Shown here piece after piece: positions 28,430 to 59,899 of a DNA stretch of 64,000 bases (position 1 is the first letter of the stretch; each line of letters opens with the position of its first letter). The translations under genes and the position numbers were made by a program. The notes below the pieces were generated by a model. It searched no databases, had not been told where the DNA came from, and saw only the letters and a list, made by a program, of their open reading frames with translations. The DNA is taken from IMG/VR virus record IMGVR_UViG_3300022654_000689. One strand, 5' to 3'. The DNA is from a virus (taxonomy: Duplodnaviria > Caudoviricetes).

Positions 28430-28462
28430 AAAAAGAATGACTATTATAGTCATTCTTTTTTT
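28428..28462. terminator. Bidirectional terminator
   Basis: AAAAAAGAATGACTAT-T-ATAGTCATTCTTTTTT between convergent genes. Confidence 0.75.
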
Positions 28463-30548
28463 ATAATGATGAATTTATTCGTTTAATTTTTCTATTACCT
28501 AAACTTATTGTTTTAATTGATGTTGAATTGCCAAATATTTTTACATTAGAATTCTTAGTTACTTTCCAATATTTACTTTCAGCTGTATTTAAGTTTATTA
28601 AAGATATATCTTCGAAACCTAGTATTTTCATTCTACCCCAATCATCATTAGTTTTTGTAGGAAGTAATCCTATTATTGTATTAATAATTGTATCACTGTT
28701 TTTTCCACTTATTTTAAAAGTTTTTAAAGAGTTGCAATTAGTAAACATGGGATTTAATACACATGAATCATTTAATATTACATTATCCATATTTATTTTT
28801 GTTAAAGAAGAACAATCTGAAAACATTGTATCTAACGTTGTTGCAAGAGACGCATCTAAATTAGGCATAATTATTCGTTTTAAAGAAGAACACGCTTCAA
28901 ACATACGTCTATTACTTCCAGACGATAATTTCTTGATATTCTCTAAACCTATAATTTCTTCTAATGATGAACACATATGGAACATTGCAAGTACGTTAAT
29001 TTCGCCATTGAATTTTGGAATACTTAAATAATTTAATGAAGTGCATGTTGTAAACATACTATTCGCACTAACATTATAATTTATAATCCATTTACTTAAA
29101 TCTAACTTAGTCAACGACGTACAATTTGCAAATGGAGCAACAACAGCTCTTGTTGTATTATTCAATCCAAAAGAACTTGTATCCCAGTCTTCAATCCCAA
29201 TTATTTCAGTTAATGCTGAACACATATAGAACATTAGGTCTATCAGAGTTACGTTAGACATATTCCAATCAGTTGAATCTATTTTAGTCAACGCTGAACA
29301 ACCTTGGAAACAACTTGTCAATGCGGTTACATTATTAAATTCCATATATCCACATTCAATCAATCCAGTATAACCGTAAAAACTAATACTAGATGGTGCA
29401 TCAGTACTATATATTGATCTGGTAACTAAGTTTTCAGCAGTATGTGTTGAAACAGGTTCTTCGTATTCAGTACTCATTATTGGATATTGATCAGGTTCAT
29501 CATTTTCATCAAGATTTATTAATAAAGTAGGATTAGTTGATAATACATTTTGAGTGTTTAAATATTCATCTACTATTTCATAGTTAACAAATTCTTCATT
29601 AAACATAGGCAGTAAATTATCTTGTATAGACTTATCAAAAGTATATTGAGCTATTAATAAAGGCATACCGTCGTAGTTCCAATATTTATTATATAAAGAT
29701 CTTATATTAATTCCCTTAGTACTATCCATTTCAGATACAAATAGTCTACCTGGATTATCCGAAGTTTTTGTAGGTAATACTTCAATTATTTTATTTAAAA
29801 ATTTTACATTTGTTTTTTTAGGTATTTGAACTTCTTTTAAAGCAGGACAGTTGCTAAACATAAGAGTTGTACTACCATTTTCATTATCACTAAATAATAG
29901 TACTGTTTCTAAAGCAGCGCAATTAGTAAATATTTGAGCTAATGTAGTTGCATTAGTAATTTTCCAATTACTAATATCTAATGATTTTAAAGCTCTACAA
30001 TCTTGGAATGTACCAGCAACTAGTTCTGCATTATTTGTATTCCAATTATTAACATCTAATTCTTTTAAAACATAGCATCCTCTAAACATAGCTCCGAAAT
30101 TAGTTACTTTACTAACATCCCAATTACCAACATCTATTGAAGTTAATAAACGACAGCCTGAAAAAAGACCTCCCATATTAGTAACATTACTAACATCTAA
30201 ATTTTCCAAACCAACTATAGTTTCTAATTTACTACAAGAATTGAACATACCTTCTATGGTTTCCATTTTACTAAAATTTGATTTACTAAAATCAACAAAT
30301 TTTAAATTTGAACATTTATAAAATGCTCCATACATATTTGTAGTTTCCCTGGTGTCCATTTCTAAAATTTCTAATAAACTGCTTTTTCCTTGAAAACTTA
30401 TGTGCGTAGGTAAATCATCGCTATATATAGTTCTAGTAGTAATAGTTCCATCTACTATATCTTCATATGTATAATTAGTAAATTCAGTATTAAAAGTTGG
30501 TAATACACTGGATGTACCACTAAATTTATACTTAACTATTAAATTCAT
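28461..30548 (-). CDS. BspA/DUF285-like 26-residue LRR protein with two LRR blocks (putative receptor-binding protein)
   Basis: MFxxCxxLxxLDxxNW repeats, each block preceded by a KYKF...PxFNxEF...TRTIYS-type cap. Confidence 0.85.
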   Translation of the reverse strand: MNLIVKYKFSGTSSVLPTFNTEFTNYTYEDIVDGTITTRTIYSDDLPTHISFQGKSSLLEILEMDTRETTNMYGAFYKCSNLKFVDFSKSNFSKMETIEGMFNSCSKLETIVGLENLDVSNVTNMGGLFSGCRLLTSIDVGNWDVSKVTNFGAMFRGCYVLKELDVNNWNTNNAELVAGTFQDCRALKSLDISNWKITNATTLAQIFTNCAALETVLLFSDNENGSTTLMFSNCPALKEVQIPKKTNVKFLNKIIEVLPTKTSDNPGRLFVSEMDSTKGINIRSLYNKYWNYDGMPLLIAQYTFDKSIQDNLLPMFNEEFVNYEIVDEYLNTQNVLSTNPTLLINLDENDEPDQYPIMSTEYEEPVSTHTAENLVTRSIYSTDAPSSISFYGYTGLIECGYMEFNNVTALTSCFQGCSALTKIDSTDWNMSNVTLIDLMFYMCSALTEIIGIEDWDTSSFGLNNTTRAVVAPFANCTSLTKLDLSKWIINYNVSANSMFTTCTSLNYLSIPKFNGEINVLAMFHMCSSLEEIIGLENIKKLSSGSNRRMFEACSSLKRIIMPNLDASLATTLDTMFSDCSSLTKINMDNVILNDSCVLNPMFTNCNSLKTFKISGKNSDTIINTIIGLLPTKTNDDWGRMKILGFEDISLINLNTAESKYWKVTKNSNVKIFGNSTSIKTISLGNRKIKRINSSL

Positions 30549-30574
30549 TTGTACTCTCCTTTCTTAAAATTTTA

Positions 30575-30602
30575 TAAAGGGCTCTCAATTGAGAGCCCTT
30601 TA
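30575..30602 (-). terminator. Perfect palindromic hairpin
   Basis: TAAAGGGCTCTCAATTGAGAGCCCTTTA. Confidence 0.6.
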
Positions 30603-30611
30603 TATATTATT

Positions 30612-30956
30612 TTATAAGCTATCATCGTTAAGTTCTAATGTTTGTATTAACATTGCAGATAAATTTCCTACTTCATTTTCTAAATTAGTAACTCTATCTT
30701 CTAGAGCTGGTTCTGGTTCTTGTAATTCTAATACTTCATAACTTATGAATATATAATCACCATATACATTATAACCTTTAATGTGTAAATATTGAGTTTC
30801 TTCGTTATATACAGGTCTTATATCTTTTACTTCTTTAAACCCATATTTTATCATAAGACCTACATTTTTATTAAAATTTGCTATGTATTGCCCATTTTCC
30901 GTTACATAGTTTTTAGGTGCATAATTTATTACACCATTATTTAATTTAGCATACAT
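30612..30956 (-). CDS. Tail-fibre accessory/chaperone-like small protein
   Basis: 114 aa; MYAKL..G.I.YAP..., C-terminal LEDRVTNLE coiled coil typical of Firmicute phage fibre-adjacent genes. Confidence 0.6.
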   Translation of the reverse strand: MYAKLNNGVINYAPKNYVTENGQYIANFNKNVGLMIKYGFKEVKDIRPVYNEETQYLHIKGYNVYGDYIFISYEVLELQEPEPALEDRVTNLENEVGNLSAMLIQTLELNDDSL

Positions 30957-30958
30957 TA

Positions 30959-32827
30959 TTATTCACCTTCCCCTTCTATTTTTTCAGCCATAGAAGCTTC
31001 TATTGTTATATTACTAGGCTGTATTTTGTATTCATCTGTTATTACTTGTATATATGAAATAGTTGTGTCAAAATTTATTTTTTCTGTTATATCCGTTTCT
31101 ATTATAATAGGTGTTTCTAAAATTAATGATTCATTTAAAGTTTCGTTATATCCTTCTGGAATTGCTACCCACTGTTCTATACAATATTTACCTTTTCCTT
31201 CGTCCCAATAAAATTTATCTTTATATTCGCCTATACTTCTTAAAGGTTGTGGTAAATAAACAATAATTTTCTGTTCTTTATAGTCTCTAAATTCTAAATA
31301 ATTAGTATTTTCGTATTCATAAAATTTAGTATCTTGAACATATATAGCTCTTTTTAATCCTGTAATATCTGGTAATTCATCTTTAATTTTGTTACAAGAA
31401 TTTTTATCTGAATACAGCATGCCTATATATTTTAAAGCATTACAACCTTCAAACATTGAAGTTGAGTTAGTTACATTAATAGTATTAAAATTACTTAAAT
31501 CTAATGAAGTTAATTTATTACAATTATAGAACATACTATTCATAGTAGTTACTTTACTAGTATTAAAATTACTTACATCTAATGAAGTTAATGATTTACA
31601 ACCATAGAACATATTTCTCATAACAGTTACATTACTAGTATCCCAATTACTTAAATCTAATGAAGTTAAGCTGTTACAATGAACGAACATAAAACTCATA
31701 TTAGTCACATTACTAGTATTCCAATTACTTACATCTAATGTAGTTAAATTATTACAATAATAGAACATAGAATCCATATTATTTACAATACTAGTATTAA
31801 AATTACTTACATCTAATGTAGTTAAATTATTACAATAACAGAACATACTTCTCATATTAGTCACATTACTAGTATCCCAATTACTTAAATCTAATGAAGT
31901 TAAGCTGTTACAATGATCAAACATATAACCCATATTAGTTACATTACTAGTATCAAAATTACTTACATCTAATTGAGTTAAATTATTACAATAATAGAAC
32001 ATCCCATACATATTAGTTACATTACTAGTATCAAAATTACTTACATCTAATTGAGTTAATTTATTACAATTTTCGAACATACTTAGCATATTAGTTACAT
32101 TACTAGTATTAAAATTACTTACGTCTAATGAAGTTAAATTATTACAATTATTGAACATACTAGTCATAGTAGTTACTTTACTAGTATTTAAATACATAAC
32201 TTCTAACAAACTATTAGAAAAATTATTTGCAGAACCACTTTCATTACCGAATCTCATTAATGTAGGTAATTCAGTACTATATATAGTTCTAGTAACCATC
32301 GAATTTAGAGCTCGTAATTCTGTTATATTCTCTCGTATATTTCCCCCCCAAATTCTAAAGTATTTTGCATTATCAGGCACATCGATTTCATTTACAAGAC
32401 TTCTATCCATTTGTGATATAAAAATTTTATTTTCGTCATACCAGTCAATTAACAACTGTCCACTATTAGGTGTTACTCTAATAATAGTATTTGGAATAAC
32501 TTCTATATAATTGCCATTTCGATATATAGTGCTATCGGAAAATTCTGTATTTTCACCTGTATTGCCGTCTATACCACCGAGTTCCCAATTGAAATCACTT
32601 ATAATTATTTCATATACTGCATTTTCATCTTCATAAGTATAATCCGTAAACTCAGCATTAAACTCAGGTATTAAATCATATAAAGTATTATTGAATTTAT
32701 ATTCTGCTATTTTGTATTTGTCGCTTACCGTAATTTCTACTTCAACATCATTAGGTGATATATTTACATTATCTTCATGTTCAAATGTAAATGATATATA
32801 AGCTATATCATTATTCGTTGCCATCAT
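30959..32827 (-). CDS. BspA/DUF285-like LRR protein with inserted beta-sandwich (CBM-like) domain
   Basis: About 10 near-perfect 26-aa repeats; WELGGID...WYDENK...PDNAKYFRI domain inserted within the cap. Confidence 0.85.
   Translation of the reverse strand: MMATNNDIAYISFTFEHEDNVNISPNDVEVEITVSDKYKIAEYKFNNTLYDLIPEFNAEFTDYTYEDENAVYEIIISDFNWELGGIDGNTGENTEFSDSTIYRNGNYIEVIPNTIIRVTPNSGQLLIDWYDENKIFISQMDRSLVNEIDVPDNAKYFRIWGGNIRENITELRALNSMVTRTIYSTELPTLMRFGNESGSANNFSNSLLEVMYLNTSKVTTMTSMFNNCNNLTSLDVSNFNTSNVTNMLSMFENCNKLTQLDVSNFDTSNVTNMYGMFYYCNNLTQLDVSNFDTSNVTNMGYMFDHCNSLTSLDLSNWDTSNVTNMRSMFCYCNNLTTLDVSNFNTSIVNNMDSMFYYCNNLTTLDVSNWNTSNVTNMSFMFVHCNSLTSLDLSNWDTSNVTVMRNMFYGCKSLTSLDVSNFNTSKVTTMNSMFYNCNKLTSLDLSNFNTINVTNSTSMFEGCNALKYIGMLYSDKNSCNKIKDELPDITGLKRAIYVQDTKFYEYENTNYLEFRDYKEQKIIVYLPQPLRSIGEYKDKFYWDEGKGKYCIEQWVAIPEGYNETLNESLILETPIIIETDITEKINFDTTISYIQVITDEYKIQPSNITIEASMAEKIEGEGE
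31430..32195 (-). repeat. 78-bp tandem repeat array (26-aa LRR units)
   Basis: Framework TTAGATGTAAGTAAT...ACTAGTAATGTAACT repeated with variable codons around ATGTTC; boundaries approximate. Confidence 0.85.
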
Positions 32828-35306
32828 TCATCACCTCATCTATTAATTTTTGTATATCTATTCCAAACATACGTTTTTTCTCTTCAGATATATCAATTAT
32901 TTTTACTAATTCTTTATTAGCGTTGTATAAATAGCATTTCAATACATAAACGTTTTCTGTTAATACATTTACAGTGATTTGTTTTTTACCTGATATATCA
33001 ATATATTTAGTTTTTACAACATTTGGAACTTCATCTTCAAAAGCACCAGTACTATCATTTATATCACCTTGTATTAATTCGTTATTATCAGGTTCTTCTG
33101 GCTCTATTGATACTCCAACAATATTCCAGAATTTAGATTGTGCTGTTGTTACATCTACTTGACTAGAATCATCTACTCCTTCAATATTTAAGGTACCTGG
33201 ATCCTCACTAGTTCTAGTAGGAAGATCAGAGATCACTTTATTTACTGATGTATAGTTTGTATTTTTCATTTCAATATTTTTTAAACTACTTGTACCCAAT
33301 GAGAATGATGCACTTACAGTTGCATTACTAAGATCACAACTATTCATTGTTATAGTTTCTAAACTATAACAATCCTGGAATAGATAAGATATGTTTATCG
33401 ATGAATTAATAAATCCATCTAAATTTACAGATGTTAAATTGCTACATCTTCTAAACGCAGACATCATCATGTTTATATTATGATTAGTTAATAAACTAAA
33501 ATCTATAGTTTCTAATTTAGGACAATCAGAGAATAAACAATACATACGTGTTAGTGAACTATTACTAATATCCCATTCATCAATACCATTTACATATTTT
33601 AAATTAGTACAGCCAAGAAATGAACTATCTAAACTAGTAACTGCTGAAGTCACATTTAAATATTCAATGCCTAGTAAATTCGTTTTGTTTTTAAAGCTAA
33701 AAGTACTGAAATCTTCTTCTGAAATTATTTCTACAGTATATATACCGTTATTTTCCGTTTCTGTTAATTCATATGCATATCCACTATTAAATGTTGGGAC
33801 TACTCCTGCGGCATTTGCTGTATATCTAGCTACTAAATTGTTAATTTCAGTTTCTTCAACAACATTCCAGAATTTAGATTGTGCTGTTGTTATATCTACT
33901 TGACTAAAATCATCTACCCCTTCAATATTTAAAGTACCTGGAGAATCGCTTGTTCTAGTTGGTATTTTTTCTATAATTTTATTAACTGAATTATAATCTG
34001 AATTATTCATTATTATAGAAGTTAAATTCGTACAATTTAAGAACATACCAGAGGTATCAGTTACTTTATTCATATTAAACGTGCCTAAATTTATTGTAGC
34101 AAGATTTTTACAACCATAGAACATATAACTCATAGTAGTTACGTTACTAGTATTCCAATTAGATAAGTCTAATTCTGTTATACCAGTCATCCAATAAAAC
34201 ATTTCTCTCATGTTAGTTATGTTATCAACATTCCAATTTTTTATGTCTAGTGTAGTTAGGCTAGTACAATTACTGAACGTATTTTGCATACTAACTATGT
34301 TTGTAGTATTCCAGTTATTTATATTATTTATATTAGTTAAATTTAAACAGTCATTGAACATATATCTTAAAGATGTTAAATTACTTATATCGATATACTC
34401 AACATAAGTTAATTTGTAAGAATTAGTTCCCATGTCCATTGAAGTTGGTAAACTGTTACTATATATGGTTCTAGTTGTTATGTTTCCTTCTACTATATCC
34501 TCATATGTATAAGTAAAACCAGTATTGAACGCAGGTATTACATCTAAAGTATTGTCGAATTTATATTTTACTACCTTAATATCATAAACAACTGTTTCTT
34601 CATATTGGGCAGTAACGGTTAAATCCCTTGTTACATTACTAAAATCAGTGTCCCAACCTATGAATGTATATCCTTCTCTAGTAGGATTAGATGGTGCTGT
34701 CGCACTTTTGCCAATTTCAACAGTTTGAATTCCTAACACTGTTCCATTCCAGTCTTTAAATGTTACTGTAAAATATTGTGTCTCCGCATATTGAGCTGTT
34801 ACAGTTAAATTACTTGTTACATTACTAAAATCAATATCCCAACCTGTAAATACATACCCATCTCTAGTAGGGTTATCAGGTGCTGTTGCACTAGAACCTT
34901 CTTCTACTGTTTGAGTTTTTAATACTGTTCCGTCCCAATCTTTAAATGTTACTGTGTAAGTTGCTGGTTCTGTATAAGTCACAATATATGTCATATCAGT
35001 AAATTTTACATTAATAGTAGTATTTTTAGACGGCGCAGTTCTTGTTACTGTAACATCTGCAGAGCTAGTTATTGTAGTTCCTAAAGAAACACTAAAAGAA
35101 CCTGATGTAGTGGCTATAGACTCGTCATTTATTGTTACTCCAGTAATGCTTCCACCAGGAGTAATTGTACCAGTTAGCATACATGACGTAATTGTTGCGC
35201 CACTAGGTATAGATGGTGCTGTCCATTCAATAGTACCTGAACCTGATGTAAATTTATTTCTAAGCTGAATCGATAAATCGCTCGGTGTACTTGTTACTGT
35301 TGCCAT
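32811..35306 (-). CDS. LRR protein with two InlB B-repeat-like (Listeria-Bacteroides repeat) domains and two LRR blocks
   Basis: (Y/F)TVTFKDW(D/N)GTVL...PTR(D/E)GYxFxGWD x2; MFxxC LRR repeats. Confidence 0.85.
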   Translation of the reverse strand: MATVTSTPSDLSIQLRNKFTSGSGTIEWTAPSIPSGATITSCMLTGTITPGGSITGVTINDESIATTSGSFSVSLGTTITSSADVTVTRTAPSKNTTINVKFTDMTYIVTYTEPATYTVTFKDWDGTVLKTQTVEEGSSATAPDNPTRDGYVFTGWDIDFSNVTSNLTVTAQYAETQYFTVTFKDWNGTVLGIQTVEIGKSATAPSNPTREGYTFIGWDTDFSNVTRDLTVTAQYEETVVYDIKVVKYKFDNTLDVIPAFNTGFTYTYEDIVEGNITTRTIYSNSLPTSMDMGTNSYKLTYVEYIDISNLTSLRYMFNDCLNLTNINNINNWNTTNIVSMQNTFSNCTSLTTLDIKNWNVDNITNMREMFYWMTGITELDLSNWNTSNVTTMSYMFYGCKNLATINLGTFNMNKVTDTSGMFLNCTNLTSIIMNNSDYNSVNKIIEKIPTRTSDSPGTLNIEGVDDFSQVDITTAQSKFWNVVEETEINNLVARYTANAAGVVPTFNSGYAYELTETENNGIYTVEIISEEDFSTFSFKNKTNLLGIEYLNVTSAVTSLDSSFLGCTNLKYVNGIDEWDISNSSLTRMYCLFSDCPKLETIDFSLLTNHNINMMMSAFRRCSNLTSVNLDGFINSSINISYLFQDCYSLETITMNSCDLSNATVSASFSLGTSSLKNIEMKNTNYTSVNKVISDLPTRTSEDPGTLNIEGVDDSSQVDVTTAQSKFWNIVGVSIEPEEPDNNELIQGDINDSTGAFEDEVPNVVKTKYIDISGKKQITVNVLTENVYVLKCYLYNANKELVKIIDISEEKKRMFGIDIQKLIDEVMNDGNE

Positions 35307-35308
35307 AA

Positions 35309-38269
35309 TTATTCACTCTCCCTTCCAAATTTAACTGGGCAACTTGATACATTAAATTTAATTCTATATTTATCATATATCAATTGTCCAACTGATTGTA
35401 TATCTGATAAATTTGATTTATTTTGAACTGTATTTCCGTACACTTCAGTTATATAAGAATCATGTATATAACATAAATTTTCACTTTCAACAACCATAGG
35501 ATAATTTGTATAAGTTTGATAATAATGATTATATTTTCCAAGATGTCCTATGTCGTCTCCATCTGAATCCTTTTGAATCACCCTTATATAGTTGAATACG
35601 AAATTTAAATTAGCAGCCGTTCCATCGTTACCAACTAATAATGTTGAATATTTTTTAAGTTTTATTATAGTTTTCAATATAGATGAAGAGTTTATAATAA
35701 AATCATCATTAAACGTAATACCATTATTGTTTAACTTTATTTTTATTTCTTTAGCTTCTGACATAGTTACATTACTTAAAAATAATGTTTCATCATTAAC
35801 AGAGTTCCAAATAGCAAAATTTAATTCAGTTTTTTCAGGATAGAAATTAATTTTGATTTGATCTGTTCTAGTTTCATCCATAATTGTTATAAGATTTAAA
35901 GGTCCACTACCTACATTATTTTCCCAACTCATTTTAGCTTCTAAATAGTCACCTCTAGCTAAATTAATAGACGCTGATATGAATAATTCTTCATTTAAAT
36001 GTCTTTCGGATATTAAATTATTTACAGTAATATCGCTTTTAAAGTAATCTTTATAAGGAAATCTAGCAGTCATATTAACTGGTTTTACTTCTTTTTCATT
36101 AGTATATATTTTCATATACGGATTATGTGTATTAAATGCTATTTTTTCAGTTATATCAGTTTCTATAATTTCTGGTGTTGATAAAACTAAAGATTCATTT
36201 ATTTCACCAATATAATCTTCTGGTATATCAATCCATTTTTCTATACAATATTTTTGCTTAGAATTGTCCCAATATAATTTATCTTTAATATTATTTATAG
36301 ACTTTAATTGTTGAGGTATTCTAACTTTTTGTGTTTCAAATGTGTAATTTCTGAATAAAGTATATTCATTAGAAGCACAATCTTCAGCAGATGTGTCCAA
36401 TACCCATATAGTTCTTTGTAAACCTTCTGCATTTGGAAATGCTAGTTGCAACATTTCACATGTTTTTTTATTTGAATAAAGTAAACCTATGTGTTTTAAA
36501 TTTTCACAGTTATAAAACATATTACTCATATCGGTTACATTACTAGTATCAAAATTACTTACGTCTAATGTAGTTAATGATTGACAATTATGGAACATAT
36601 AACTCATATCGGTTACATTACTAGTATCAAAATTACTTACGTCTAATGTAGTTAATGATTGACAATCTTTGAACATACTTTCCATATCAGTTACGTTACT
36701 AGTATTCCAATTACTTACATCTAATGAAGTTAAATTATTACAACCATAGAACATACTTTCCATATCAGTTACTTTACCAGTATTCCAATTACTTACATCT
36801 AATGAAGTTAAATTAGTACAATCAGAGAACATAGCATACATATTGGTTACATTACTAGTATTCCAATTACTTACATCTAATGTTGTTAAATTATTACAAC
36901 CATAGAACATATATTCCATATCAGTTACGTTACTAGTATCCCAATTACTTACATCTAATATAGTTAAATTATTACAACCGCTCATCATTCCATACATATT
37001 AGTGCATTTGTCAGTTATAATAAATGGTGTTATATAATTAATATTACAACATCCATGGAACATTAATTCACATGTTGTTATATTAGTTGCATCTAAATAT
37101 ATTAATTCAATTATTGCCCTGAATTTTGCTTTAGATGCTTCACCTCCACTACCACTACTATCAGGATTACCAAATCTAACCATTGTAGGTAAACTATTAC
37201 TATATATAGTTCTAGTAGTTACTTCTCCGTCCACTATATCTTCATAAGCATAACCTGTAAACTCAGCATTAAATTCTGGTATTAAATCATATAAAGTATT
37301 ATTGAATTTATATTTGACTATAATTTCTTCATACTGAGCTGTTACTAGTAAGTCACTAGTTACATTAGTAAAATCAACATCCCATCCTATGAATATATAA
37401 CCGTTTCTAGTAGGATTAGAAGGAGCAGTTGCAGATTGTCCCTCTTCAACTTGTTCAGTTTTTAACACCGTTCCGTCCCAATCTTTAAATGTTACTATGT
37501 AATGAATTATTTCTTCATACTGAGCTGTTACTAGTAAGTCACTAGTTACATTAGTAAAATCAACATCCCATCCTATGAATATATAACCGTCTCTAGTAGG
37601 ATTATCAGGTGCTGATGCTGGTTGTCCTTCTTCTACAGTTTGAGTTTTTAATACTGTTTCGTCCCAATCTTTAAATGTTACTGTATAATAAATTATTTCT
37701 TCATACTGAGCAGTAACAGTTAAATTGTTAGTTACATTAGTAAAATCAACATCCCATCCTATGAATGTATAACCGTCTCTAGTAGGATTAGAAGGAGCAG
37801 TTGCAGATTGTCCCTCTTCAACTTGTTCAGTTTTTAACACCGTTCCATCCCAATCTTTAAATGTTACTGTATAAGTTGTTGGTTCGGATGAACTATCATC
37901 TATATATAAGTATGCCCCTTCGATAAAACCCTCTATAACATAGTTACTAGTAGAACGTATATAAATCGTTGGGTGAGCAGTGTCGACAATAGTAACGGTA
38001 ATTTCTTTATTATAACTAGTAACAACATCAGGGTTTGAATCTATTTCCATATAAATACCTGAAGGTATAGATGCTACTCCTAATTTTATAGTTTTTCCTG
38101 CAATCATGTCTAGTGTACCAAAACTACTATGTATAGAATAGTCAGCTGTTTCAAAGCATACTTCTACACTATAGTCTTGTTTATCAACAAAATATACCTC
38201 ATTCTCTTCTTCAAAAATCCAATAGCCACTATTAAATTTAGGAAATAAGTTTTCACCAGTTGTTGCCAT
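35309..38269 (-). CDS. LRR protein with three InlB B-repeat-like domains
   Basis: Three YxVTFKDWD repeats, about 8 LRR units, C-terminal GNTVQN..SVG module. Confidence 0.85.
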   Translation of the reverse strand: MATTGENLFPKFNSGYWIFEEENEVYFVDKQDYSVEVCFETADYSIHSSFGTLDMIAGKTIKLGVASIPSGIYMEIDSNPDVVTSYNKEITVTIVDTAHPTIYIRSTSNYVIEGFIEGAYLYIDDSSSEPTTYTVTFKDWDGTVLKTEQVEEGQSATAPSNPTRDGYTFIGWDVDFTNVTNNLTVTAQYEEIIYYTVTFKDWDETVLKTQTVEEGQPASAPDNPTRDGYIFIGWDVDFTNVTSDLLVTAQYEEIIHYIVTFKDWDGTVLKTEQVEEGQSATAPSNPTRNGYIFIGWDVDFTNVTSDLLVTAQYEEIIVKYKFNNTLYDLIPEFNAEFTGYAYEDIVDGEVTTRTIYSNSLPTMVRFGNPDSSGSGGEASKAKFRAIIELIYLDATNITTCELMFHGCCNINYITPFIITDKCTNMYGMMSGCNNLTILDVSNWDTSNVTDMEYMFYGCNNLTTLDVSNWNTSNVTNMYAMFSDCTNLTSLDVSNWNTGKVTDMESMFYGCNNLTSLDVSNWNTSNVTDMESMFKDCQSLTTLDVSNFDTSNVTDMSYMFHNCQSLTTLDVSNFDTSNVTDMSNMFYNCENLKHIGLLYSNKKTCEMLQLAFPNAEGLQRTIWVLDTSAEDCASNEYTLFRNYTFETQKVRIPQQLKSINNIKDKLYWDNSKQKYCIEKWIDIPEDYIGEINESLVLSTPEIIETDITEKIAFNTHNPYMKIYTNEKEVKPVNMTARFPYKDYFKSDITVNNLISERHLNEELFISASINLARGDYLEAKMSWENNVGSGPLNLITIMDETRTDQIKINFYPEKTELNFAIWNSVNDETLFLSNVTMSEAKEIKIKLNNNGITFNDDFIINSSSILKTIIKLKKYSTLLVGNDGTAANLNFVFNYIRVIQKDSDGDDIGHLGKYNHYYQTYTNYPMVVESENLCYIHDSYITEVYGNTVQNKSNLSDIQSVGQLIYDKYRIKFNVSSCPVKFGRESE
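37320..37875 (-). repeat. Three ~186-bp tandem repeats (B-repeat domains)
   Basis: Long identical DNA stretches between copies; boundaries approximate. Confidence 0.85.
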
Positions 38270-38554
38270 CTATATTCTACCCCCCTTCCCAAATTCATAT
38301 GGACATGCTGACTGTATTATTTCTATTTCATATACTTCATCTAAAGCTTTCTCCCCTACAGAAGATATATCTAATAAATCATTTTCATTTTGTACAGTAT
38401 TTCCTTCTATTTCTTCTATATAGGTTTTTTCTTCTTCATCTAATAATTCTGAAACTATTTCTATCGGATAATTAGTTTTAGTAATAGTAAATTTATTTAT
38501 TACTGGTAATTTTTCTCCTTTTTCATTAAATAATAATTTTTTACTCATTCGCAA
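38270..38554 (-). CDS. Stand-alone copy of the C-terminal module of 35309..38269
   Basis: TNYP...GNTVQN..L.DI.SVG...Y.I....S.CP..FG in both. Confidence 0.75.
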   Translation of the reverse strand: MRMSKKLLFNEKGEKLPVINKFTITKTNYPIEIVSELLDEEEKTYIEEIEGNTVQNENDLLDISSVGEKALDEVYEIEIIQSACPYEFGKGGRI

Positions 38555-43600: not shown

Positions 43601-43601
43601 A

Positions 43602-47244: not shown

Positions 47245-47256
47245 ATTAAATAAATC

Positions 47257-49735: not shown

Positions 49736-49758
49736 AAGCGGGAATAATATTCCCGCTT
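49736..49758 (-). terminator. Hairpin between fibre genes
   Basis: AAGCGGGAATA-A-TATTCCCGCTT. Confidence 0.6.
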
Positions 49759-49770
49759 CATTAATCTGTT

Positions 49771-52700: not shown

Positions 52701-53757
52701 CAGCTGCTAACTCATTTAACGTATTTAAAGTTTCAGGTGCAGAATCTACTAAATTAGCAACTTCGTCTTTAACGAAAGCTTCAGTAGCTAATCCTTCTAT
52801 ACTAGGTATTTCAGGAGTATCAGTTAAATCTTTATATGACCCAGTGAAATTTGATTTTTCATCCCAAGAAGCAATTTTAGCATCATCGATTTGATCAAGA
52901 ACTGCTTTATTACTATGAGTATGTAAATCAGTTTTATCAGCTTTTGCGTCTAACATAGAAACGTCAGCTTTAGCATCAAGCATTGATATATCGGCTTTAG
53001 CGTCTAATGCAGTTTTATCAGCTTTAAGATCTACTGCATCTTGAGTAGCTAATCCTTCTATAGATGGTATTTCAGGTAAGTTTTCTAAGCTGTTATAGTC
53101 ACCATCGAAATCTGATTTTGCATCCCATAATGCCATTCTAGCAGCATCTATTTTGTCAAGATCATCTTTATTAGCGTGTTGATGTAGTTCAGTTCTATCA
53201 GCTTTATAACTTAATTCATCTTTAGTTGCATATCCAGATAAATCTACTTCTTGATCTCCACCATTTAATTCAGCTTCAGCTATTGCATTTCTAACGAAAG
53301 TTTCAGTAGCTAAACCATCAACTGAAGGTATTTCATCTTTAGTAGCATAGTTAGCTAATTCAGCACCTAACATTCCAGTAGTTACATGATCAACTGGCTT
53401 ACCTTGTAAGTCTTCATAATTTCCACTGAAGTTAGATTTTGCATTCCAAGATTCTATATGATCTTGAGTAATTTGGTCTAATACATCTTTATTATCGTGT
53501 TCGTGTGAATCTCCAGCAGCGGTTTCTCCCCCACCTACACCAAACTCTTTCCATTCAGTTCCATTGTATTGGTATGTCTTATCTTCACTGATTACGTATA
53601 CAATTAACCCTGGATAAGCACGGTTACCTGTAACATGAGCGTCACGTTCTTCTATAGTATTAGCTACTAAACGTGCGTCTAATGGTGCTTTAGCACCTAG
53701 ATCAAATCCAGATGCTAAAGGAATTCCCCTACCAAAGAAAGTGTTATTATCTGCCAT
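49771..53757 (-). CDS. Long repetitive tail fibre protein
   Basis: Many HxHxNKxxLDxI...W repeats, KVDKVEGKSL, APxTLNxLxELAxAL..D..FATT phage fibre repeats; N-terminal GF....PLDAR module. Confidence 0.85.
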   Translation of the reverse strand: MADNNTFFGRGIPLASGFDLGAKAPLDARLVANTIEERDAHVTGNRAYPGLIVYVISEDKTYQYNGTEWKEFGVGGGETAAGDSHEHDNKDVLDQITQDHIESWNAKSNFSGNYEDLQGKPVDHVTTGMLGAELANYATKDEIPSVDGLATETFVRNAIAEAELNGGDQEVDLSGYATKDELSYKADRTELHQHANKDDLDKIDAARMALWDAKSDFDGDYNSLENLPEIPSIEGLATQDAVDLKADKTALDAKADISMLDAKADVSMLDAKADKTDLHTHSNKAVLDQIDDAKIASWDEKSNFTGSYKDLTDTPEIPSIEGLATEAFVKDEVANLVDSAPETLNTLNELAAALKDDASFATTVSNQIGLKADKTDLDGKVDKIEGKSLVDDEEIERLSKVDNYDDSEIREALNAKVEQNDLVGFATKEEVNAKANQTDVDNALGLKADKTDLHTHNNKAVLDKIDDAKIAAWDEKSEFSGSYNDLTDKPEIPSIEGLAKSTDLEPLAKSEDVNQALALKADKSELHNHENADALAQINQDQIDAWNAKSNFSGKYEDLEGKPTDHVTTGMLSTELESYASKEYVTEEIAKAKLEGEEVDLSGFVTDSELADAIRPLANQADVDATLALKADKSELHNHENKEALDGINAEKIAAWDNKAEADHNHDEDYAAKADLDGKVDKVEGKSLIADTEIARLAELQNYDDSELRELIDGKANSGDLHSHANKAVLDNIDAAKVAAWDSKSEFSGSYTDLTDTPEIPSIEGLAKSTDLEPLAKKEDVDQALSLKADKTDLHEHENKDALDQINQDLIDSWNAKSNFSGKYEDLEGKPTDHVTTGMLSTELDNYGTKGYIDEAIQKAQLESDGANLEIFVTDEELSTAIKDKANTTDVDNALQLKADKTDLHEHANKDLLDALTAEKITAWDNKAAGDHNHDEDYAAKADLDKKVDKLEGKSLVADTEIARLAELQNYDDTDVKNRLVALEADTHEHANKQVLDNIDAAKVAAWDEKSEFSGSYNDLEDLPVLFSGSFNDLSDVPEEIVMVDEMNTALDVKADKADLDLKVDKVEGKSLVADTEIARLANVDNYDDTDVKERLETLEADTHEHANKQVLDGIDAAKVAAWDSKSEFSGSYNELTEKPDLTVYETKEEVSKKANQSDVDAALELKADKTDLHTHANKEVLDNINADRVTLWDNKATTEYVDTKIGDLVGQAPDTLNALNELAQALGNDPNFATTMTNTLATKADKTDLEGLATENYVNNKITEAQLPGGSLDMTGLATKDELQELENLLATKADVPAKDPAYPTLTLYYITAVPTKDTTVYPDLDI

Positions 53758-53776
53758 TTAATTCCATCTCCCTTTC

Positions 53777-54895
53777 TTAGTATTTAAATGTCATATTGAA
53801 GTTAGTATTTGTATTAGCTCCATTAGCATATACATAATATGCTTGAGCTGTTCCATCTAAACCTACTACAGAAACTTCAGTTCTAGTGAAAGTTCCTATT
53901 TGTTCGAATCCATTAGGGTCTAATATTGATTTTAGAACACCATAAGATTTAGGATAAGCTATAACCATACGTTGATTGTCTGATGTAAATGAATATGTTT
54001 TATTACCTTTTGCAACAACTTGTTTAGTTAGTCCTTTAACTACGTCAGCTGTTATTTCAACACCATCTGCAACTACTCCATAATAATATGGATAATAGAA
54101 ATTAAGAGCTACAGTATTAGCTGTAACTGATTTTCCACTTGCATCAGTTGCTACAACTTTAAAGTAACTAGTTGACGCAGTTTTAATAACTTGTTGAGCT
54201 GGATCGAATTCGTGTACAAAACTACCACCACCTGCAACGTCTTCAGTTACTTCTTCAACAACCGCATTATTTACATAAAATTTAACACTAGTTATATTTT
54301 CTGATTTTTTAATAACATTTGCAGTTATTCTGCTAACTTCAATAGTTTGACCAAATTCATATACTCCACCAGTTGGAGTGTATCCTAATGATGCAGATAC
54401 AGTTGGCTGAACGTAAGGATATAATAATTTAGTTAAAACTTGTTGTATTGACATACCATTTAAATCAGTTCCGGCTGGTATTCCGCCTAACGCAGATACA
54501 GTTTTCATATCAGCTTTGAATACATCATTTTCAGCAACTTCTTCTAGTTCTTCTTTAGTTGCTAATCCAGATATATCAACACTTCCTCCGCCTACTCCAG
54601 CTTCAGCTATCGCGTCTTCAACAAACTCTTTAGTTACATATGGCAATTCTTGATACGTATCAACTAAAGCATTTTTTATAGTAGATAAACCAGATTTACC
54701 ATCTTTCAATGTTAATACTTCAAATCTTTTGCCAGTATCTTTAACATATACAATCATACCAATATATGGTTTTGGTATTGACATAATATCTGCTTCTGTT
54801 TCTACTCTACATCTAACGTCTAAAGGTGTATCAGTAGTAGATGGTTTAAAACCGCCTTTAGATGCTGATGCATTAAGATTAAAATCTGTAGCCAT
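53777..54895 (-). CDS. Fibre connector protein (PLDxR N-module, Ig-like domain, YYG...AYP..YG.L..I.D.NGF C-module)
   Basis: N-terminal ~70 aa near-identical to 54919..56412. Confidence 0.75.
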   Translation of the reverse strand: MATDFNLNASASKGGFKPSTTDTPLDVRCRVETEADIMSIPKPYIGMIVYVKDTGKRFEVLTLKDGKSGLSTIKNALVDTYQELPYVTKEFVEDAIAEAGVGGGSVDISGLATKEELEEVAENDVFKADMKTVSALGGIPAGTDLNGMSIQQVLTKLLYPYVQPTVSASLGYTPTGGVYEFGQTIEVSRITANVIKKSENITSVKFYVNNAVVEEVTEDVAGGGSFVHEFDPAQQVIKTASTSYFKVVATDASGKSVTANTVALNFYYPYYYGVVADGVEITADVVKGLTKQVVAKGNKTYSFTSDNQRMVIAYPKSYGVLKSILDPNGFEQIGTFTRTEVSVVGLDGTAQAYYVYANGANTNTNFNMTFKY

Positions 54896-54918
54896 TAATT
54901 ATCAACTCCTTTTTTAAA

Positions 54919-56412
54919 TTAATTTTCATCGATGTGGATTGTATAATTTGCTCCACCATTAGTATCATACATTCCTGATAGTCTATATTTGATACCGTCT
55001 ATTTCATTTACTAATTCAACATTGTCTAATGATAACCCAGACACTGTATCAAATTCTGTGAAACTACATTTTTTACCATTACCTTCATCCATTGAAGCTA
55101 CTAAAGTACTATCTACAGGTAATATTACACATATAAATCCATTAGCTGGTACTTCTAACTCAACAGAACCTACAGCTTCAGGTTCAGCTTCTATTAATGA
55201 TCCATTATCTATACCAAATTTCATTATATCATAAGTCATATTTCCATTTATATGATTAGTTTCAGAGAATCCAGCAACTCCAGTTTCATCGTATGGTATA
55301 TATCCATACCACATTTTTGAATTAGCAGGGCCAGCCATAACAGGATAACACTTAGGTAAATTGAATATTACTGTTATATTAGGGAATTCTCCTACCATTT
55401 CAACTGAAGGTTCAAATCCATTTTCAATCATATTTACTTGGAATTGATAATTAGCACCATTAATAACTCCATCTTGAGTTATTTGAATATTAGAACCTGC
55501 TTTAACACCACCTAATTCTTCATTAGTAGCAACTGGAAGTTCATAATTGTCAACGTTAGCTAATCTTTCTATTTCAGCATCATCTACAAGAGATTTTCCT
55601 TCTACTTTATCTACTTTAGCACCTAGTCCTTCATTAACAAAGTTTTCAGTAGCTAGTCCTTCTATAGATGGTATTTCAGGTTTATTAGTTAAATCATTGT
55701 AATCTTTACTAAATAATTCTGATTTATCAGCTTTATTAGCTAATATTCCTCTTATTTCAGCGTCATCATAATTGTCAACGTTAGCTAATCTTGCTATTTC
55801 AGCATCATCAACAAGAGATTTACCTTCCACTTTATCTACTTTGTTAGTTAACCCTTCATTAACAAAGTTTTCGCTAGCTAAACCTTCTATACTAGGTATT
55901 TCAGGTTTATTAACTAAGTCATTATAATCTTTATTGAATAATTCAGATTTATCAGCTTTATTAGCTAATATTCCTCTTATTTCAGCGTCATCATAGTTAT
56001 CAACATCTGCTAATCTTGCTATTTCAGCATCATCAATTAATGATTTACCTTCTGCCTTATCTACTTTGTTAGCTAACCCTTCATTAACAAAGTTTTCAGT
56101 AGCTAATCCTTCTATATTAGGTATTTCAGGCTTATCAGCTAAGTCATTATAAGAAACTATTAATTCTCTATATTCATTAACTGCAGCGTTTTTAACAACA
56201 GATAATCCAGCTTTAATATCTTTTAATGATAATACTTCAAATCTTTTACCAGTATCTTTAACATATATTACCATACCAATATATGGTTTTGGTATTGACA
56301 TAATGTCTGCTTCTGTTTCTACTCTACATCTAATATCCAAAGGTGTATCAGTAGAGGACGGTTTAAAACCGCCCTTAGAAGCAGATGAGTTAAGATTAAA
56401 ATCTGTAGCCAT
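54919..56412 (-). CDS. Fibre segment protein
   Basis: N-terminus shared with 53777..54895, repeats shared with 49771, C-terminal ~180 aa shared with 56441..59899. Confidence 0.8.
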   Translation of the reverse strand: MATDFNLNSSASKGGFKPSSTDTPLDIRCRVETEADIMSIPKPYIGMVIYVKDTGKRFEVLSLKDIKAGLSVVKNAAVNEYRELIVSYNDLADKPEIPNIEGLATENFVNEGLANKVDKAEGKSLIDDAEIARLADVDNYDDAEIRGILANKADKSELFNKDYNDLVNKPEIPSIEGLASENFVNEGLTNKVDKVEGKSLVDDAEIARLANVDNYDDAEIRGILANKADKSELFSKDYNDLTNKPEIPSIEGLATENFVNEGLGAKVDKVEGKSLVDDAEIERLANVDNYELPVATNEELGGVKAGSNIQITQDGVINGANYQFQVNMIENGFEPSVEMVGEFPNITVIFNLPKCYPVMAGPANSKMWYGYIPYDETGVAGFSETNHINGNMTYDIMKFGIDNGSLIEAEPEAVGSVELEVPANGFICVILPVDSTLVASMDEGNGKKCSFTEFDTVSGLSLDNVELVNEIDGIKYRLSGMYDTNGGANYTIHIDEN

Positions 56413-56440
56413 TATAACATCCCCTTCTTATTATATTAAA

Positions 56441-59400
56441 TTATTTTTCTTGAACATAAATTGTATATCTTGCTCCACCATTAGTATCATACATTCCTGA
56501 AAGTTTATATGTAACACCATTTATTTTGTTAACTAGTGTACGATCATCTAATGATAATCCAGAAACTGTATCAAAGTCACTAAATGTTCCAGCATTTCCT
56601 ATACCATCATCTATAAGTCCTATTAAATTACTATCTAATGGTAGTATTGTACATAAGAAACCATTTGCTCCTACTAAAAATTCTGTAGCTCCTAAAACTC
56701 CTGGTTCAGCTTCAATTAAAGTTCCATTGTCTATACCGAATTTCATTATATCATAAGTCATATTTTCATTTATATGATCTACTTCAGAGAATCCTGCTAC
56801 TCCACTTTCGTCATATGGTATCCATCCATACCACATTTTTGGAGTCCCTGGTTCTTCCTCTTCTCCTTCTCCACCGCCTTCAACAACGCTTCCAGCAGGT
56901 ATGTTAAATACAACAGTAATATTTGGATAATCTCCTTGCATAGAAACAGATGCAGCTTCTCCAGCAGCTATCATATTAATTTTGAATTGATAGTTTGCAT
57001 TGAATACTCCAGCTAGTCTTTCTATTTCAGCATCATCTACAAGAGATTTATTTTCAACTTTATCTACTTTACCAGATATATCAACTTGAGGATGTTCTAT
57101 TGCAGCTATTTGTTGATTAACGAATTCTTCACTAGCTAATCCTTCAACAGATGGTATTTCAGACTTATCAGCTTTATCAGCTATCATTTCTCTTAATTCA
57201 GAATCATCATAAGCTAAATCTTCGTCAACTGGTCTTTCTACTTTTTCTAACATAGAAATATCACCATTGTTGACAACACAGTCCATTATAGAACCTTTAA
57301 CGTCTTCAGCAATCATTTCAACTCCATTGTCAGTACCAAATTTGAAATTATTAACTGTTCCTCCGTTTAATTCTACAAATCCGTCTTCTATTATACCATT
57401 AACAGTAGCGTCTTCAGTTTCTCCACCGAAGTATAGATTTTGAACAATACCGTCATTTAATACAAATCTAGCTTTGAATACAACACCTCTGTTTGTTGAT
57501 TGAGCTACTTTAACAGAACCTCCGTTTAGAACTATTTCAGCATTTCTTGTCATACCATTAGAACCACCAGCTGTTACCCAACCGATTTCACAATTGTTAA
57601 ATTCTGCATAAACATCATCTGCAACACCATTTCCTTGTGATCCACCGAAGAATGTAGAAGATATTTTACAATTAGTCATTTTAATATTTATATCGTCTAC
57701 TACGTTCATTCTAGTTGCTTTACCGTTAACAGATGCACCACACCAACCAGCACCCATAACAGAAACAAATTCGCAGTTTTCAGCTTCCATGTTAACATGG
57801 CCTACCATACCTTCGAAATAGCATCCACCAACTAAACCTTTGATTTTAACATCTCTAACAATCATATTAGTTTGAGGTATGGAACGTCTAGCTCCAATAT
57901 TTCTATCTCCAAAACCACCAACTAAATAAACTTTAGCAGCTTCTTCTTTTTCAACTACTATAGCTTCAAATCCTTCCGCCCATCTATAAACGAATGCTAC
58001 TGCATCTTCAGGTTTTTCAGCATCATACTTATGTCCTATATTAGGTTCAACTGTCATTGGTTGACCACAAGCAAATAAGAATTTACTAGTTGGATACGCT
58101 GCAACATCAGTTAGATAAGGTTTTTCTTCATCTATTAATACTCTCAATTCAGAATCATCATAGTTATCAACATTTGCTAGTCTAGCTATTTCTTCATCAG
58201 CTACTAGTGATTTCCCTTCAACTTTATCTACTTTAGCATCTAAATCTTCTTTAGTAGCAAAACCTGACAAATCAATTCCTTCACCGTTTTCGCCGCCACC
58301 TAATTGAGCTTCAGCTATTTTTTGATTAACAAAATCTTCACTAGCTAGTCCATCTATAGATGGTATTTCAGGTTTGTTAACTAAGTCATTATAATCTTTA
58401 CTGAATAGTTCGTCTTTTCCAGCTTTACCATCTATCATTTCTCTTAATTCAGTATCATCGTAATTATCTACATTAGCTAGTCTAGCTATTTCAGCGTCGT
58501 CAACTAAAGATTTACCTTCTACTTTATCTACTTTATTATCAATTAATCCTCTTAATTCAGCATCATCGTAATTTTTAAATTGATCTAAATCATCTTTAGT
58601 AGCTAAATTACTTAAATCAGGAACTTTATATAGTTCAGGACGAATTAAATTATCATCACCAAATATATGAATTCCTTGGACTGCATTATTTATTTTATCT
58701 CTTACAGCTTGATGAAGATCTTCTTCAGGAATTCCATCATCAGGTTTGTTATATTTTGCATTCCATATGTCTCTTTCACCTGAAAGAACATGAGCATCGT
58801 TGTCGTCTCTATGAATTCCCCATTCGTTATTTATGAAATCTTCATAATCTTCTTTTGATACATAATCACCTGATATACTTCCTTCTCTTTCAGGTAATAA
58901 TTCATCTCTCACCTTACCAGATAAAGGATCAACTATATCGCTAAATGGGAATATTTTAGCCATTTCATCTTTTATGTCATTTCCTAAATGAGAAAATTTT
59001 AAACCGTCAGCAGGCATATCAAATTTATTATCCCATTCAATTATTTTAGCATCATTTATTGTATCTAATAGTGCTTTATTTTCATGAACATGGAAATCAG
59101 TCTTATCAGCCTTTTCAGATATAAGATCTCTTAATAAAGAATCGTCATAGTTATCAACATTTGCTAGTCTAGCTATTTCAGCGTCGTCAACTAAAGATTT
59201 ACCTTCTACTTTATCTACTTTATTAGCTAATTCGTCTTTAGTAGCTAATCCTGATAGATCTATTTCTTGGTCTCCACCACCTAATTCAGCTTCAGCTATA
59301 GCATTTCTAACAAAATTTTCAGTAGCTAAACCTTCTATAGAAGGTATTTCTGATTTATCTGCTTTAAGAGCAAGTTTAGCATCTATAACCGCTAATTCTT

Positions 59401-59899
59401 CAGGATCGACTCCCCCAATTTTCTTTAACTCTTCTTGTACATATTTTTTACTAGCAAATTCCTCAACATTAACAATAACATCTAAGAAATTACCATTAAG
59501 AGTTATTATCTGTTTCATATCTTTTAATACTACTTCAAATCCGTCAGCTGAGATATTAAATACAAACATTACTTGGTCATTTATTCCAAAACAAACAACT
59601 TCAATTCTGTCATTATTATTTTCGGCAAGTCCTCTACCAATGTTTAATATTCTAGCTAAATTTGGATTAATATCAGTATATCCGAATATTTTTCCATCTT
59701 TTAATTGAAAATCTTCTTTGAAATCAACAGTTATATAATTATAAATTGCATTTTTTACGCCATCATTATCTAATAGTTTAAATGAATCTTCATAAACTAC
59801 ATAGCTGTCTCTAATTATTTCTAAATAGTTTTCCATATTAATTTTACCTAATAACGCATTAATTTCGTCACCAGTATAATGAATGTTATAGTAATTCAA
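56441..59899 (-). CDS. Long fibre protein with beta-helix-like insertion
   Basis: HYTGDEINALL N-terminus, KVDKVEGKSL repeats, GG-rich beta-helix-like segment, KMWYG C-module; TTG start, late promoter 59946-59935. Confidence 0.8.
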   Translation of the reverse strand: MNYYNIHYTGDEINALLGKINMENYLEIIRDSYVVYEDSFKLLDNDGVKNAIYNYITVDFKEDFQLKDGKIFGYTDINPNLARILNIGRGLAENNNDRIEVVCFGINDQVMFVFNISADGFEVVLKDMKQIITLNGNFLDVIVNVEEFASKKYVQEELKKIGGVDPEELAVIDAKLALKADKSEIPSIEGLATENFVRNAIAEAELGGGDQEIDLSGLATKDELANKVDKVEGKSLVDDAEIARLANVDNYDDSLLRDLISEKADKTDFHVHENKALLDTINDAKIIEWDNKFDMPADGLKFSHLGNDIKDEMAKIFPFSDIVDPLSGKVRDELLPEREGSISGDYVSKEDYEDFINNEWGIHRDDNDAHVLSGERDIWNAKYNKPDDGIPEEDLHQAVRDKINNAVQGIHIFGDDNLIRPELYKVPDLSNLATKDDLDQFKNYDDAELRGLIDNKVDKVEGKSLVDDAEIARLANVDNYDDTELREMIDGKAGKDELFSKDYNDLVNKPEIPSIDGLASEDFVNQKIAEAQLGGGENGEGIDLSGFATKEDLDAKVDKVEGKSLVADEEIARLANVDNYDDSELRVLIDEEKPYLTDVAAYPTSKFLFACGQPMTVEPNIGHKYDAEKPEDAVAFVYRWAEGFEAIVVEKEEAAKVYLVGGFGDRNIGARRSIPQTNMIVRDVKIKGLVGGCYFEGMVGHVNMEAENCEFVSVMGAGWCGASVNGKATRMNVVDDINIKMTNCKISSTFFGGSQGNGVADDVYAEFNNCEIGWVTAGGSNGMTRNAEIVLNGGSVKVAQSTNRGVVFKARFVLNDGIVQNLYFGGETEDATVNGIIEDGFVELNGGTVNNFKFGTDNGVEMIAEDVKGSIMDCVVNNGDISMLEKVERPVDEDLAYDDSELREMIADKADKSEIPSVEGLASEEFVNQQIAAIEHPQVDISGKVDKVENKSLVDDAEIERLAGVFNANYQFKINMIAAGEAASVSMQGDYPNITVVFNIPAGSVVEGGGEGEEEEPGTPKMWYGWIPYDESGVAGFSEVDHINENMTYDIMKFGIDNGTLIEAEPGVLGATEFLVGANGFLCTILPLDSNLIGLIDDGIGNAGTFSDFDTVSGLSLDDRTLVNKINGVTYKLSGMYDTNGGARYTIYVQEK

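Follow-up and report, generated by a model that had tools for sequence, protein, structure and literature searches.

A long row of fibre genes in phage DNA of 64,000 nucleotides (nt; IMG/VR record IMGVR_UViG_3300022654_000689; the whole stretch is called the window in the following) raises the question of whether the encoded proteins form parallel fibres or the successive segments of one fibre. The row belongs to a block of 21 co-oriented minus-strand genes that fill positions 28461-59899, and many of the encoded proteins draw their termini from a small set of modules. The first-pass annotation read modules at C-termini as sockets and modules at N-termini as plugs, such that subunits would daisy-chain in gene order. 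This reading holds in part: two pairings of a C-terminal end with the N-terminal start encoded by the next gene recur across distant phages, but one of the C-terminal modules, (c), shows no partner specificity and the respective test on fresh loci failed. Judged from sequence comparison, we give about even chances to fibres that are built end to end from separately encoded segments, with joints set by matched terminal modules.

We compared the modules within the window by all-against-all BLASTP and by motif scans of every open reading frame (ORF). All four proposed classes, referred to as (a) to (d), are reused at the genes named for them and are strictly terminal. Module (a) starts g54919 and g53777 (61% identity over 133 amino acids (aa), BLASTP), while the start of g49771 is a diverged version of it (a'; GF..PLDAR). 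Module (b), KKILK..P(I/V)T(R/K)xDxV, is found at residues 3-11 in g47257, g46198, g45958 and g38561, and module (d), L..(V/I/L)K.Y(V/T)D, at residues 7-11 in g45779, g45534, g45361, g43643 and g42071. That is, an N-terminal element is common to proteins with different bodies in four (b) and five (d) window genes. At the other end, module (c), ITE(D/E)EL..(I/L), stops 5-6 residues short of the stop codon in g46198, g45958, g45779 and g45361, with a looser version (ITAEDFTGNLADL) at the C-end of g47257. Its consensus, h-T-x-x-[DE]-[ILV]-x-x-[ILMA]-[FILV], describes a capped amphipathic helix. Finally, g56441 and g54919 have their C-terminal 339 aa in common (49% identity), which include a C-terminal domain of about 130 aa that we call YG-beta. 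Modules (a) to (d) are absent from the rest of the 246 window ORFs of at least 30 aa (regular expressions), save two motif matches, an internal TDEEL in g49771 and one in a 57-aa ORF. The number of module-carrying genes is thus 13 (all co-oriented; 42071-59899 plus 38561) instead of the about 18 first counted. They are, in order of transcription:

56441-59899, minus strand: g56441, 1152 aa; fibre protein rich in repeats, N-module NYYNIHYTGDEINALLGKI of its own; PHROG tail protein match.
56444-56863, minus strand: YG-beta domain of g56441 (domain 1013-1151 by hidden Markov model (HMM), E = 8.5e-41).
54919-56412, minus strand: g54919, 497 aa; (a) at 56188-56412, fibre repeats, YG-beta at 54922-55341.
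53777-54895, minus strand: g53777, 372 aa; (a) at 54671-54895, C-terminal beta domain ending YYVYANG..NMTFKY.
49771-53757, minus strand: g49771, 1328 aa; diverged a' at about 53548-53757, then about 1200 aa of short fibre repeats.
47257-49680, minus strand: g47257, 807 aa from M8; (b), Ala-rich coiled coil, (c)-like end.
46198-47067, minus strand: g46198, 289 aa; (b), conserved AHAP..AQKNSDITKAEIEAKLTG..H.H block, coil, (c).
45958-46176, minus strand: g45958, 72 aa; (b), short coil, (c); own ribosome-binding site.
45779-45928, minus strand: g45779, 49 aa; (d) plus (c).
45534-45716, minus strand: g45534, 60 aa; (d) and coil NLVNAINEI, without (c); PHROG tail fibre, E = 2e-6.
45361-45510, minus strand: g45361, 49 aa; duplicate of g45779.
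43643-45319, minus strand: g43643, 558 aa; (d) and globular tip.
42071-43342, minus strand: g42071, 423 aa; second tip, (d) start; own 300-nt upstream region.
38561-40324, minus strand: g38561, 587 aa; (b), HAEG/YadA-like repeats, internal TTKLYVDN.

For g47257, M8 at 49680 is the probable true start, in line with the public 807-aa gene call. Besides the module matches, g49771 matches 33 PHROG tail and tail-fibre families.

The evidence for matched ends is strongest for YG-beta and (a). We seeded an HMM solely from the last 140 residues of g54919 and g56441 and searched it against the genes called in 100-odd loci from other phage contigs (labelled by L-numbers, e.g., L003; L001, L002 and L094 are spurious loci), most of which had been fetched via module (a). 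The HMM found 20 genes, in all of which the domain either runs to the last residue or makes up a stand-alone protein (121-153 aa). After dereplication, the next gene starts with (a), as called by an HMM of the window's module (a), for 17/18 YG-beta genes vs. 10/1162 other genes (Fisher p = 3.6e-30), which shows the position of YG-beta relative to (a) and is no unbiased census, because the loci were fetched via that module. In the three remaining cases, tblastn finds an (a) match directly behind the YG-beta gene (L100 with a miscalled neighbour, L095 and L105 at the contig end). The proposed check of whether socket-ending genes precede plug-starting genes thus comes out far above chance for this pair. 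The YG-beta copies form 11 clusters at 45% identity and have a median pairwise identity of 27%, i.e., DNA homology among them is long gone while their adjacency to (a) persists. Three-gene chains shaped like that of the window are found in L013 (204 aa with YG-beta, 368 aa from (a) to YG-beta, 669 aa starting with (a)) and in L096 (121 aa, 509 aa and 272 aa with the same sequence of ends). The second pairing combines the YYVY..KFSY end (g53777) with the MADN.FG.GIPL..PLD.RLV start (g49771) in the next gene and is seen again in L099 and L102.

Given that adjacency is kept at 25-35% protein identity, a functional coupling of the C-terminal end with the next N-terminal start is the most economical account. 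Proteins that lack a tip point the same way, that is, towards end-to-end assembly in gene order: many (a)-start proteins are connectors of about 250 aa that run from (a) to (c) without a tip domain, and relatives encode YG-beta as a stand-alone protein. In such an assembly, the YG-beta domain would receive module (a) of the next-encoded protein (g56441 to g54919 to g53777, which makes g54919 a candidate middle link between the two others), and the YYVY..KFSY domain of g53777 would receive the a' start of g49771. The segments are probably trimeric. From these gene-level patterns, we infer that the segments dock physically, as well as their trimeric state, their order of assembly and their place in virions.

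Another joint type may operate in the tightly packed run that starts with g46198 and ends with g43643. Terminator-like hairpins follow g47257 (47219-47244) and g43643 (43602-43630); since they lie on both sides, g46198-g43643 looks like one transcription unit. Two more such hairpins are found after g49771 (49702-49770) and g42071 (41972-42011). Within the unit, the order of ends is (b)..(c), (b)..(c), (d)..(c), (d), (d)..(c) and (d)..tip. Here, the short helix (c) would be the outgoing end of stalk pieces, while the incoming ends would be helix (d) of the mini-proteins and of the alternative tips g43643 and g42071, or the N-terminus (b). Because several incoming genes stand behind one outgoing end, the tips are probably alternatives on a shared stalk. 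The two tips are 93% identical over residues 1-95 of g42071. The tip genes are separated by a non-coding gap of 300 nt (43343-43642), in which an AT-rich stretch precedes the ribosome-binding site of g42071, and this gap probably gives the second tip its own promoter.

Across phages, genes with a (c) end stand directly before genes with a helical start of type (d) or (b) in five lineages or more. Respective (c)-type tails before (d)-type or (b)-like starts are observed in the window and in L003-5, L007, L009, L010, L011, L013, L015, L098, L099, L101 and L108, and for four (c)-ending proteins looked up, the next gene has a helical start in 4/4. L007 encodes four successive (c)-ending genes and then three tips with related starts; in L009, a single (c)-ending gene precedes a tip with a (d) start, and another two such tips lie farther downstream; L010 and L011 each show a (c) end before a helical start. 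The single genome of L011 even holds two matched pairs (IIAGLD-end before KL..LAKKL-start, AFTGAGL-end before K.Y.D-start), and a 323-aa protein of L007 contains a (c)-like and then a (d)-like motif within one chain. By eye, the same end-to-start pattern is seen in the fresh loci L098, L099, L101, L102 and L108, including (c) ends before (b)-like starts. In a set of 120 proteins homologous to the central block of g46198, picked regardless of their termini, about 10 end in (c) and many start with a (d)-like helix. A motif test of (c) followed by (d) yields 10/13 vs. 13/86 (p = 1.4e-5) with motifs that were written post hoc. A complex prediction of three copies of residues 1-95 of g43643 with three copies of g45361 scores 0.84, but as one unrelated control scores 0.77, this prediction speaks neither for nor against binding.

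The conserved AHAP-containing block within g46198 (46663-46860, minus strand; YRGD.G..AY.HSQ..HAP..AQKNSDITKAEIEAKLTG.ITSH.H, about 45 aa) is an unusually frozen module in its own right: it is found with 60-90% identity in more than 1500 otherwise unrelated fibre proteins and has 18 invariant columns across 27 diverse sequences.

The DNA of the window also shows how new links may arise. The YG-beta end, the spacer and the (a) start are duplicated as a single unit with 70-98% identity, which fades about 230 nt into the next gene. A tandem duplication across a gene junction would leave, in the middle, a gene that combines an incoming start with an outgoing end; g54919 looks like the product expected of such an event and, by the same logic, so does the 49-aa (d)-(c) gene. 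The DNA of (d) and (c) is likewise repeated, five and four times, respectively.

The same duplications fit an alternative that we consider rather unlikely, namely paralogy and recombination only. That is, modules (a), (b) and (d) would each anchor parallel, independent fibres to common sites on the baseplate or on one adaptor, the C-terminal modules would be distal knobs (YG-beta) or trimerisation elements and helix caps (c), and adjacency would reflect inherited synteny and tandem duplication. An N-terminal anchor combined with a C-terminal receptor binder is the standard architecture of receptor-binding proteins (RBPs; PMC10253068). The junction of YG-beta, spacer and (a) moved as one DNA unit, (d) and (c) DNA is repeated, and for g54919 a single junction duplication suffices. 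It is harder to reconcile with parallel fibres that the adjacency spans 11 YG-beta clusters below 45% identity and different architectures, i.e., stand-alone proteins of 121-153 aa as well as C-ends of proteins of 204-1152 aa. A stand-alone YG-beta protein without anchor or shaft is hard to see as a receptor-binding tip, and neither the (a)-(c) proteins of about 250 aa nor the 72-aa (b)-(c) protein contain any tip domain.

YG-beta is predicted with confidence as a compact fold of about 8 strands and 3 helices (predicted local distance difference test (pLDDT) 88.7, predicted template modelling (TM) score 0.86). No clear match to a solved structure was obtained (best Foldseek E = 0.08, best VIA Z = 4.5). 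The fold is weakly similar to C-terminal domains of many phage fibre proteins (E = 4e-3 to 2e-2, TM 0.45-0.55). Phage PaBG encodes a weakly similar stand-alone protein of 139 aa, and an Atlas cluster of collagen-containing proteins matches YG-beta at TM 0.71. For module (a) alone, the fold prediction is of low confidence (pLDDT 54), which fits folding on a partner or in an oligomer and proves nothing. An assignment of module (a) to Pfam Mtd_N (PF18454) was rejected, as there is no Pfam match at E <= 0.01 and the Atlas feature lead (0.86) falls short of the reliable range.

Besides the sampling of loci via (a), a number of points weigh against assembly by matched ends. Since similar folds are common C-terminal knobs of phage fibres, YG-beta could be a receptor-binding tip. 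For the first 80 residues of (a), the 178 homologues are 65-85% identical and vary in their C-ends (YG-beta knobs, YYVY..KFSY domains, other globular ends); compared to the median of 27% for YG-beta, this level of identity is odd for a co-evolving pair and fits a binding of (a) to some other conserved partner. The expected upstream partner is missing for some genes, i.e., 10/27 (a)-start genes stand behind a gene without YG-beta, and of four (d)-start genes looked up, the two in L012 and L014 lack an upstream gene with a (c) end. These three points also favour parallel fibres, the main rival. A protein with both an incoming and an outgoing module, such as g54919 or the 49-aa protein, would be able to self-polymerise. 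With regard to (c), two such ends of the window stand before a (b) start, and so do (c) ends in L098, L099 and L102; since (c) thus precedes both (b) and (d), there is no strict, specific code. The unchanged (c)/(d) motifs did not replicate on fresh loci (1/4, p = 0.40), the fixed motifs matched in 78 IMG/VR loci only within relatives of one known lineage, and the window-seeded (c) HMM drifted to unrelated ITEEEY motifs. Likewise, the window-seeded (b) HMM found no significant relative outside this phage, with 'GWDSILPITTAENV' starts reaching only E of about 1.4.

A second alternative concerns only the four mini-ORFs (72, 49, 60 and 49 aa), which would be non-functional debris of unequal recombination between terminal modules and no fibre parts; we regard this as improbable. 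They comprise little beyond the terminal modules, whose DNA is repeated in the window, and a protein search finds no homologue of the 49-aa protein among 1.84 billion representative proteins and none of similar length for the 72-aa protein. On the other hand, each has an intact frame with its own, well-spaced GGAG-type ribosome-binding site and spacers of 22-62 nt, and all four are called as genes on public contigs. The duplicate of g45779 and g45361 (163 nt, 97% DNA identity) is exactly a ribosome-binding site plus ORF; being such duplicates, the two genes are not independent. Their five coding differences are three synonymous and two conservative changes, which are small numbers. The gene order of the locus is constant on those contigs with the 72-aa gene that were read, and L098 has at a similar position a comparable 84-aa mini-gene with a (d) start and a (c)-like end. 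The candidate family Phage_XkdX (PF09693) was rejected for the 49-aa proteins, which show motif-level resemblance only and no Pfam match at E <= 0.01.

Finally, it is very improbable that the small proteins, perhaps together with the YG-beta proteins that stand alone in relatives, are fibre assembly chaperones that bind terminal helices transiently and are absent from the virion: fibre-adjacent small genes often encode chaperones (T4 gp38, gp57A; Tfa proteins) and the 49-aa protein superficially resembles a 49-aa ITEEEY protein of L113, but no Pfam or PHROG chaperone family matched, known chaperone genes are usually downstream of their fibre with products that bind its C-terminal part, and the motifs shared here are those of the fibre segments themselves.

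The proposed end-to-end assembly has a close analogue in the long tail fibre of T4, in which the separately encoded segments gp34-gp35-gp36-gp37 are joined end to end with a gene order that runs from proximal to distal (PMC5537660, PMC3004832). The conserved end/start adjacency observed here would fit such a gene-order joining of segments. While the joints of T4 are unique, few joint types are apparently reused here by many genes and phages, and several alternative genes stand behind one outgoing end. Pfam, PHROGs and PDB sequence searches showed no homology to gp34, gp35, gp36 or gp37, and the PDB sequence searches gave no significant match at all.

Branched RBP systems provide a second comparison. 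In the Klebsiella phages KP32, K11 and KP34, a branching domain of RBP1 is combined with a conserved docking peptide of RBP2, and T4 gp10-like XD domains are found in CBA120 and RaK2 (PMC13352976, PMC10253068, PMC11414711). That is, a conserved N-terminal element docks on a dedicated domain of another RBP, with parts that are exchangeable between phages. The locus resembles these systems in its conserved N-termini on varied bodies, e.g., module (a) in 178 proteins with 65-85% identity over 80 aa. It differs in the receiving side: their receiving domains are part of the N-terminal region of the primary protein and produce lateral branches, whereas the candidate receiving modules here are at the extreme C-terminus, which implies linear extension. 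A T4 gp10-like (XD) branching domain was not matched by Pfam or PHROG profile searches. The hyperbranched fibres of the jumbo phages phiKp24 and RaK2/phiK64-1 carry depolymerase tailspikes and target Gram-negative hosts (PMC9700779, PMC10253068). The likeness is in the large phage, the long row of fibre genes and the many putative tips; the difference is in the proteins, which are here repeat, coiled-coil and HxH fibres together with DUF285/BspA-type leucine-rich repeat (LRR) and Flg_new proteins. Depolymerase families were not found in the fibre block by Pfam searches. Staphylococcal phage 80alpha FibU/FibL was rejected as an analogue, as these fibres are not joined end to end (PMC7048315).

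The first-pass annotation knew of no such docking system in a phage, which is too strong a statement: the general idea is not new, because docking peptides and branching domains (PMC13352976, PMC10253068, PMC11414711) and the colinear T4 fibre gp34-37 (PMC5537660) are established. In a limited literature search, we found no description of C-terminal receiving modules with partner N-termini encoded by the following gene, in a set that many phages reuse.

The remainder of the block consists of genes that are no module carriers:

40392-41912, minus strand: g40392 and g41241, inserted in the fibre row.
28461-38554, minus strand: distal block of g35309, g32811, g30959, g28461 and the small g38270 and g30612, without modules (a) to (d).

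Of the inserted genes, g40392 encodes an Amidoligase_2 protein (PF12224, E = 1.2e-37, 130.6 bits vs. a cut-off of 22; phrog_2443, E = 1.5e-47), and g41241 a Cys-containing protein of 223 aa without family assignment. That their products modify acidic fibre ends is pure speculation. For the genes within 28461-38269, we observe PF03382 (DUF285) in four genes above gathering score (E = 4e-31 to 2e-65), PF09479 (Flg_new) at 4e-28 and 3e-19, and PF13306 (BspA-type LRR) in two genes. Since these genes are free of modules (a) to (d), the module system does not extend to 28461 as initially described. The LRR and HAEG genes are no more than putative tips of the fibre chain.

Some observations concern further ends. 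The last 71 residues of g38270 (94 aa, 38270-38554) are 45% identical to the C-terminus of the 986-aa LRR protein g35309 (35309-35530), i.e., this end is a further reused C-terminal module outside classes (a) to (d). The N-terminus of g32811 (35165-35306, minus strand; MATVTSTPSDL..WT.P..PSGA.I.S..LTG) recurs at L009:7185, L013:8237 and L108:3629, and in other phages starts of this type are directly behind tip genes that end in a Phage_tail_C motif (..AEYDAL..K...T.Y.I..). The N-terminus of g56441 (59840-59899, minus strand) resembles the start NFYTINYSGREFNELLRKI of a collagen-repeat protein (L015:2554-2620), and it may be a fifth reused start module. At least two lineages show an end-start pair that is absent from the window, namely a ..(A/K)M(T/V)FAF(L/M)K(V/G)K.. 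end before a MA(L/M)T(D/E)E(Q/E)(L/I)L.Q.N(V/I)L..KT start (L003:6900-7100, L013:3700-3900, L015:3600-3750; in L003, the C-end is related and the next start the same). In the related gut jumbo phages of L003 (9677-10864), L004 and L005, both of the final fibre genes terminate in a beta-hairpin motif that is foldon-like, PVT.Y.DD.GD.W..(stop). Within the window, a 504-aa tail-like protein (11768-13282, plus strand) has 127 aa in common with the middle of g56441 (45% identity; same PHROG tail family); there are therefore fibre-related genes outside the block as well.

As for the phage itself, the exact 72-aa product of 45958-46176 is present on at least 30 public contigs, which reach 330 kb; on those that were read, the locus has an identical gene order, so that the phage is large, recurrent and uncultured. 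The G+C content of the window is 24-37%, and outside the fibre block topoisomerase II, a DnaB-like helicase, an SbcD-like nuclease and an endolysin are encoded. Several fibre genes are tail or tail fibre genes by PHROGs, while no Pfam family matched the fibre genes (E <= 0.01). The locus encodes the tail fibres and adhesins of this large uncultured phage of low GC content. There is no close cultured relative, i.e., INPHARED blastn and tblastn gave distant partial matches only; Rfam and ARAGORN found no introns or RNA genes in gaps across the window; and IMG/VR scans with g45958, g54919, g43643, P0147 and A4 as queries returned nothing useful.

On a wider scale, it is possible, though doubtful, that many large phages without cultured members have in common a small 'grammar' of orthogonal docking pairs (end to start), by which separately encoded segments would self-assemble into long fibres in gene order. 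The proposed pairs would be YG-beta with (a), YYVY-KFSY with a', the (c) helix with (d) or (b), and possibly others. If this grammar holds, a junction duplication would instantly yield a new link that fits, with alternative tips in competition for one stalk, which would provide a general mechanism for the evolution of fibre length and host range. If the joints are real, gene order and two short terminal signatures would predict multi-protein fibre architecture in uncultured phages, junction duplication would explain longer fibres or added tips without disrupted assembly, and the modules would be ready-made exchangeable connectors for the engineering of receptor-binding proteins.

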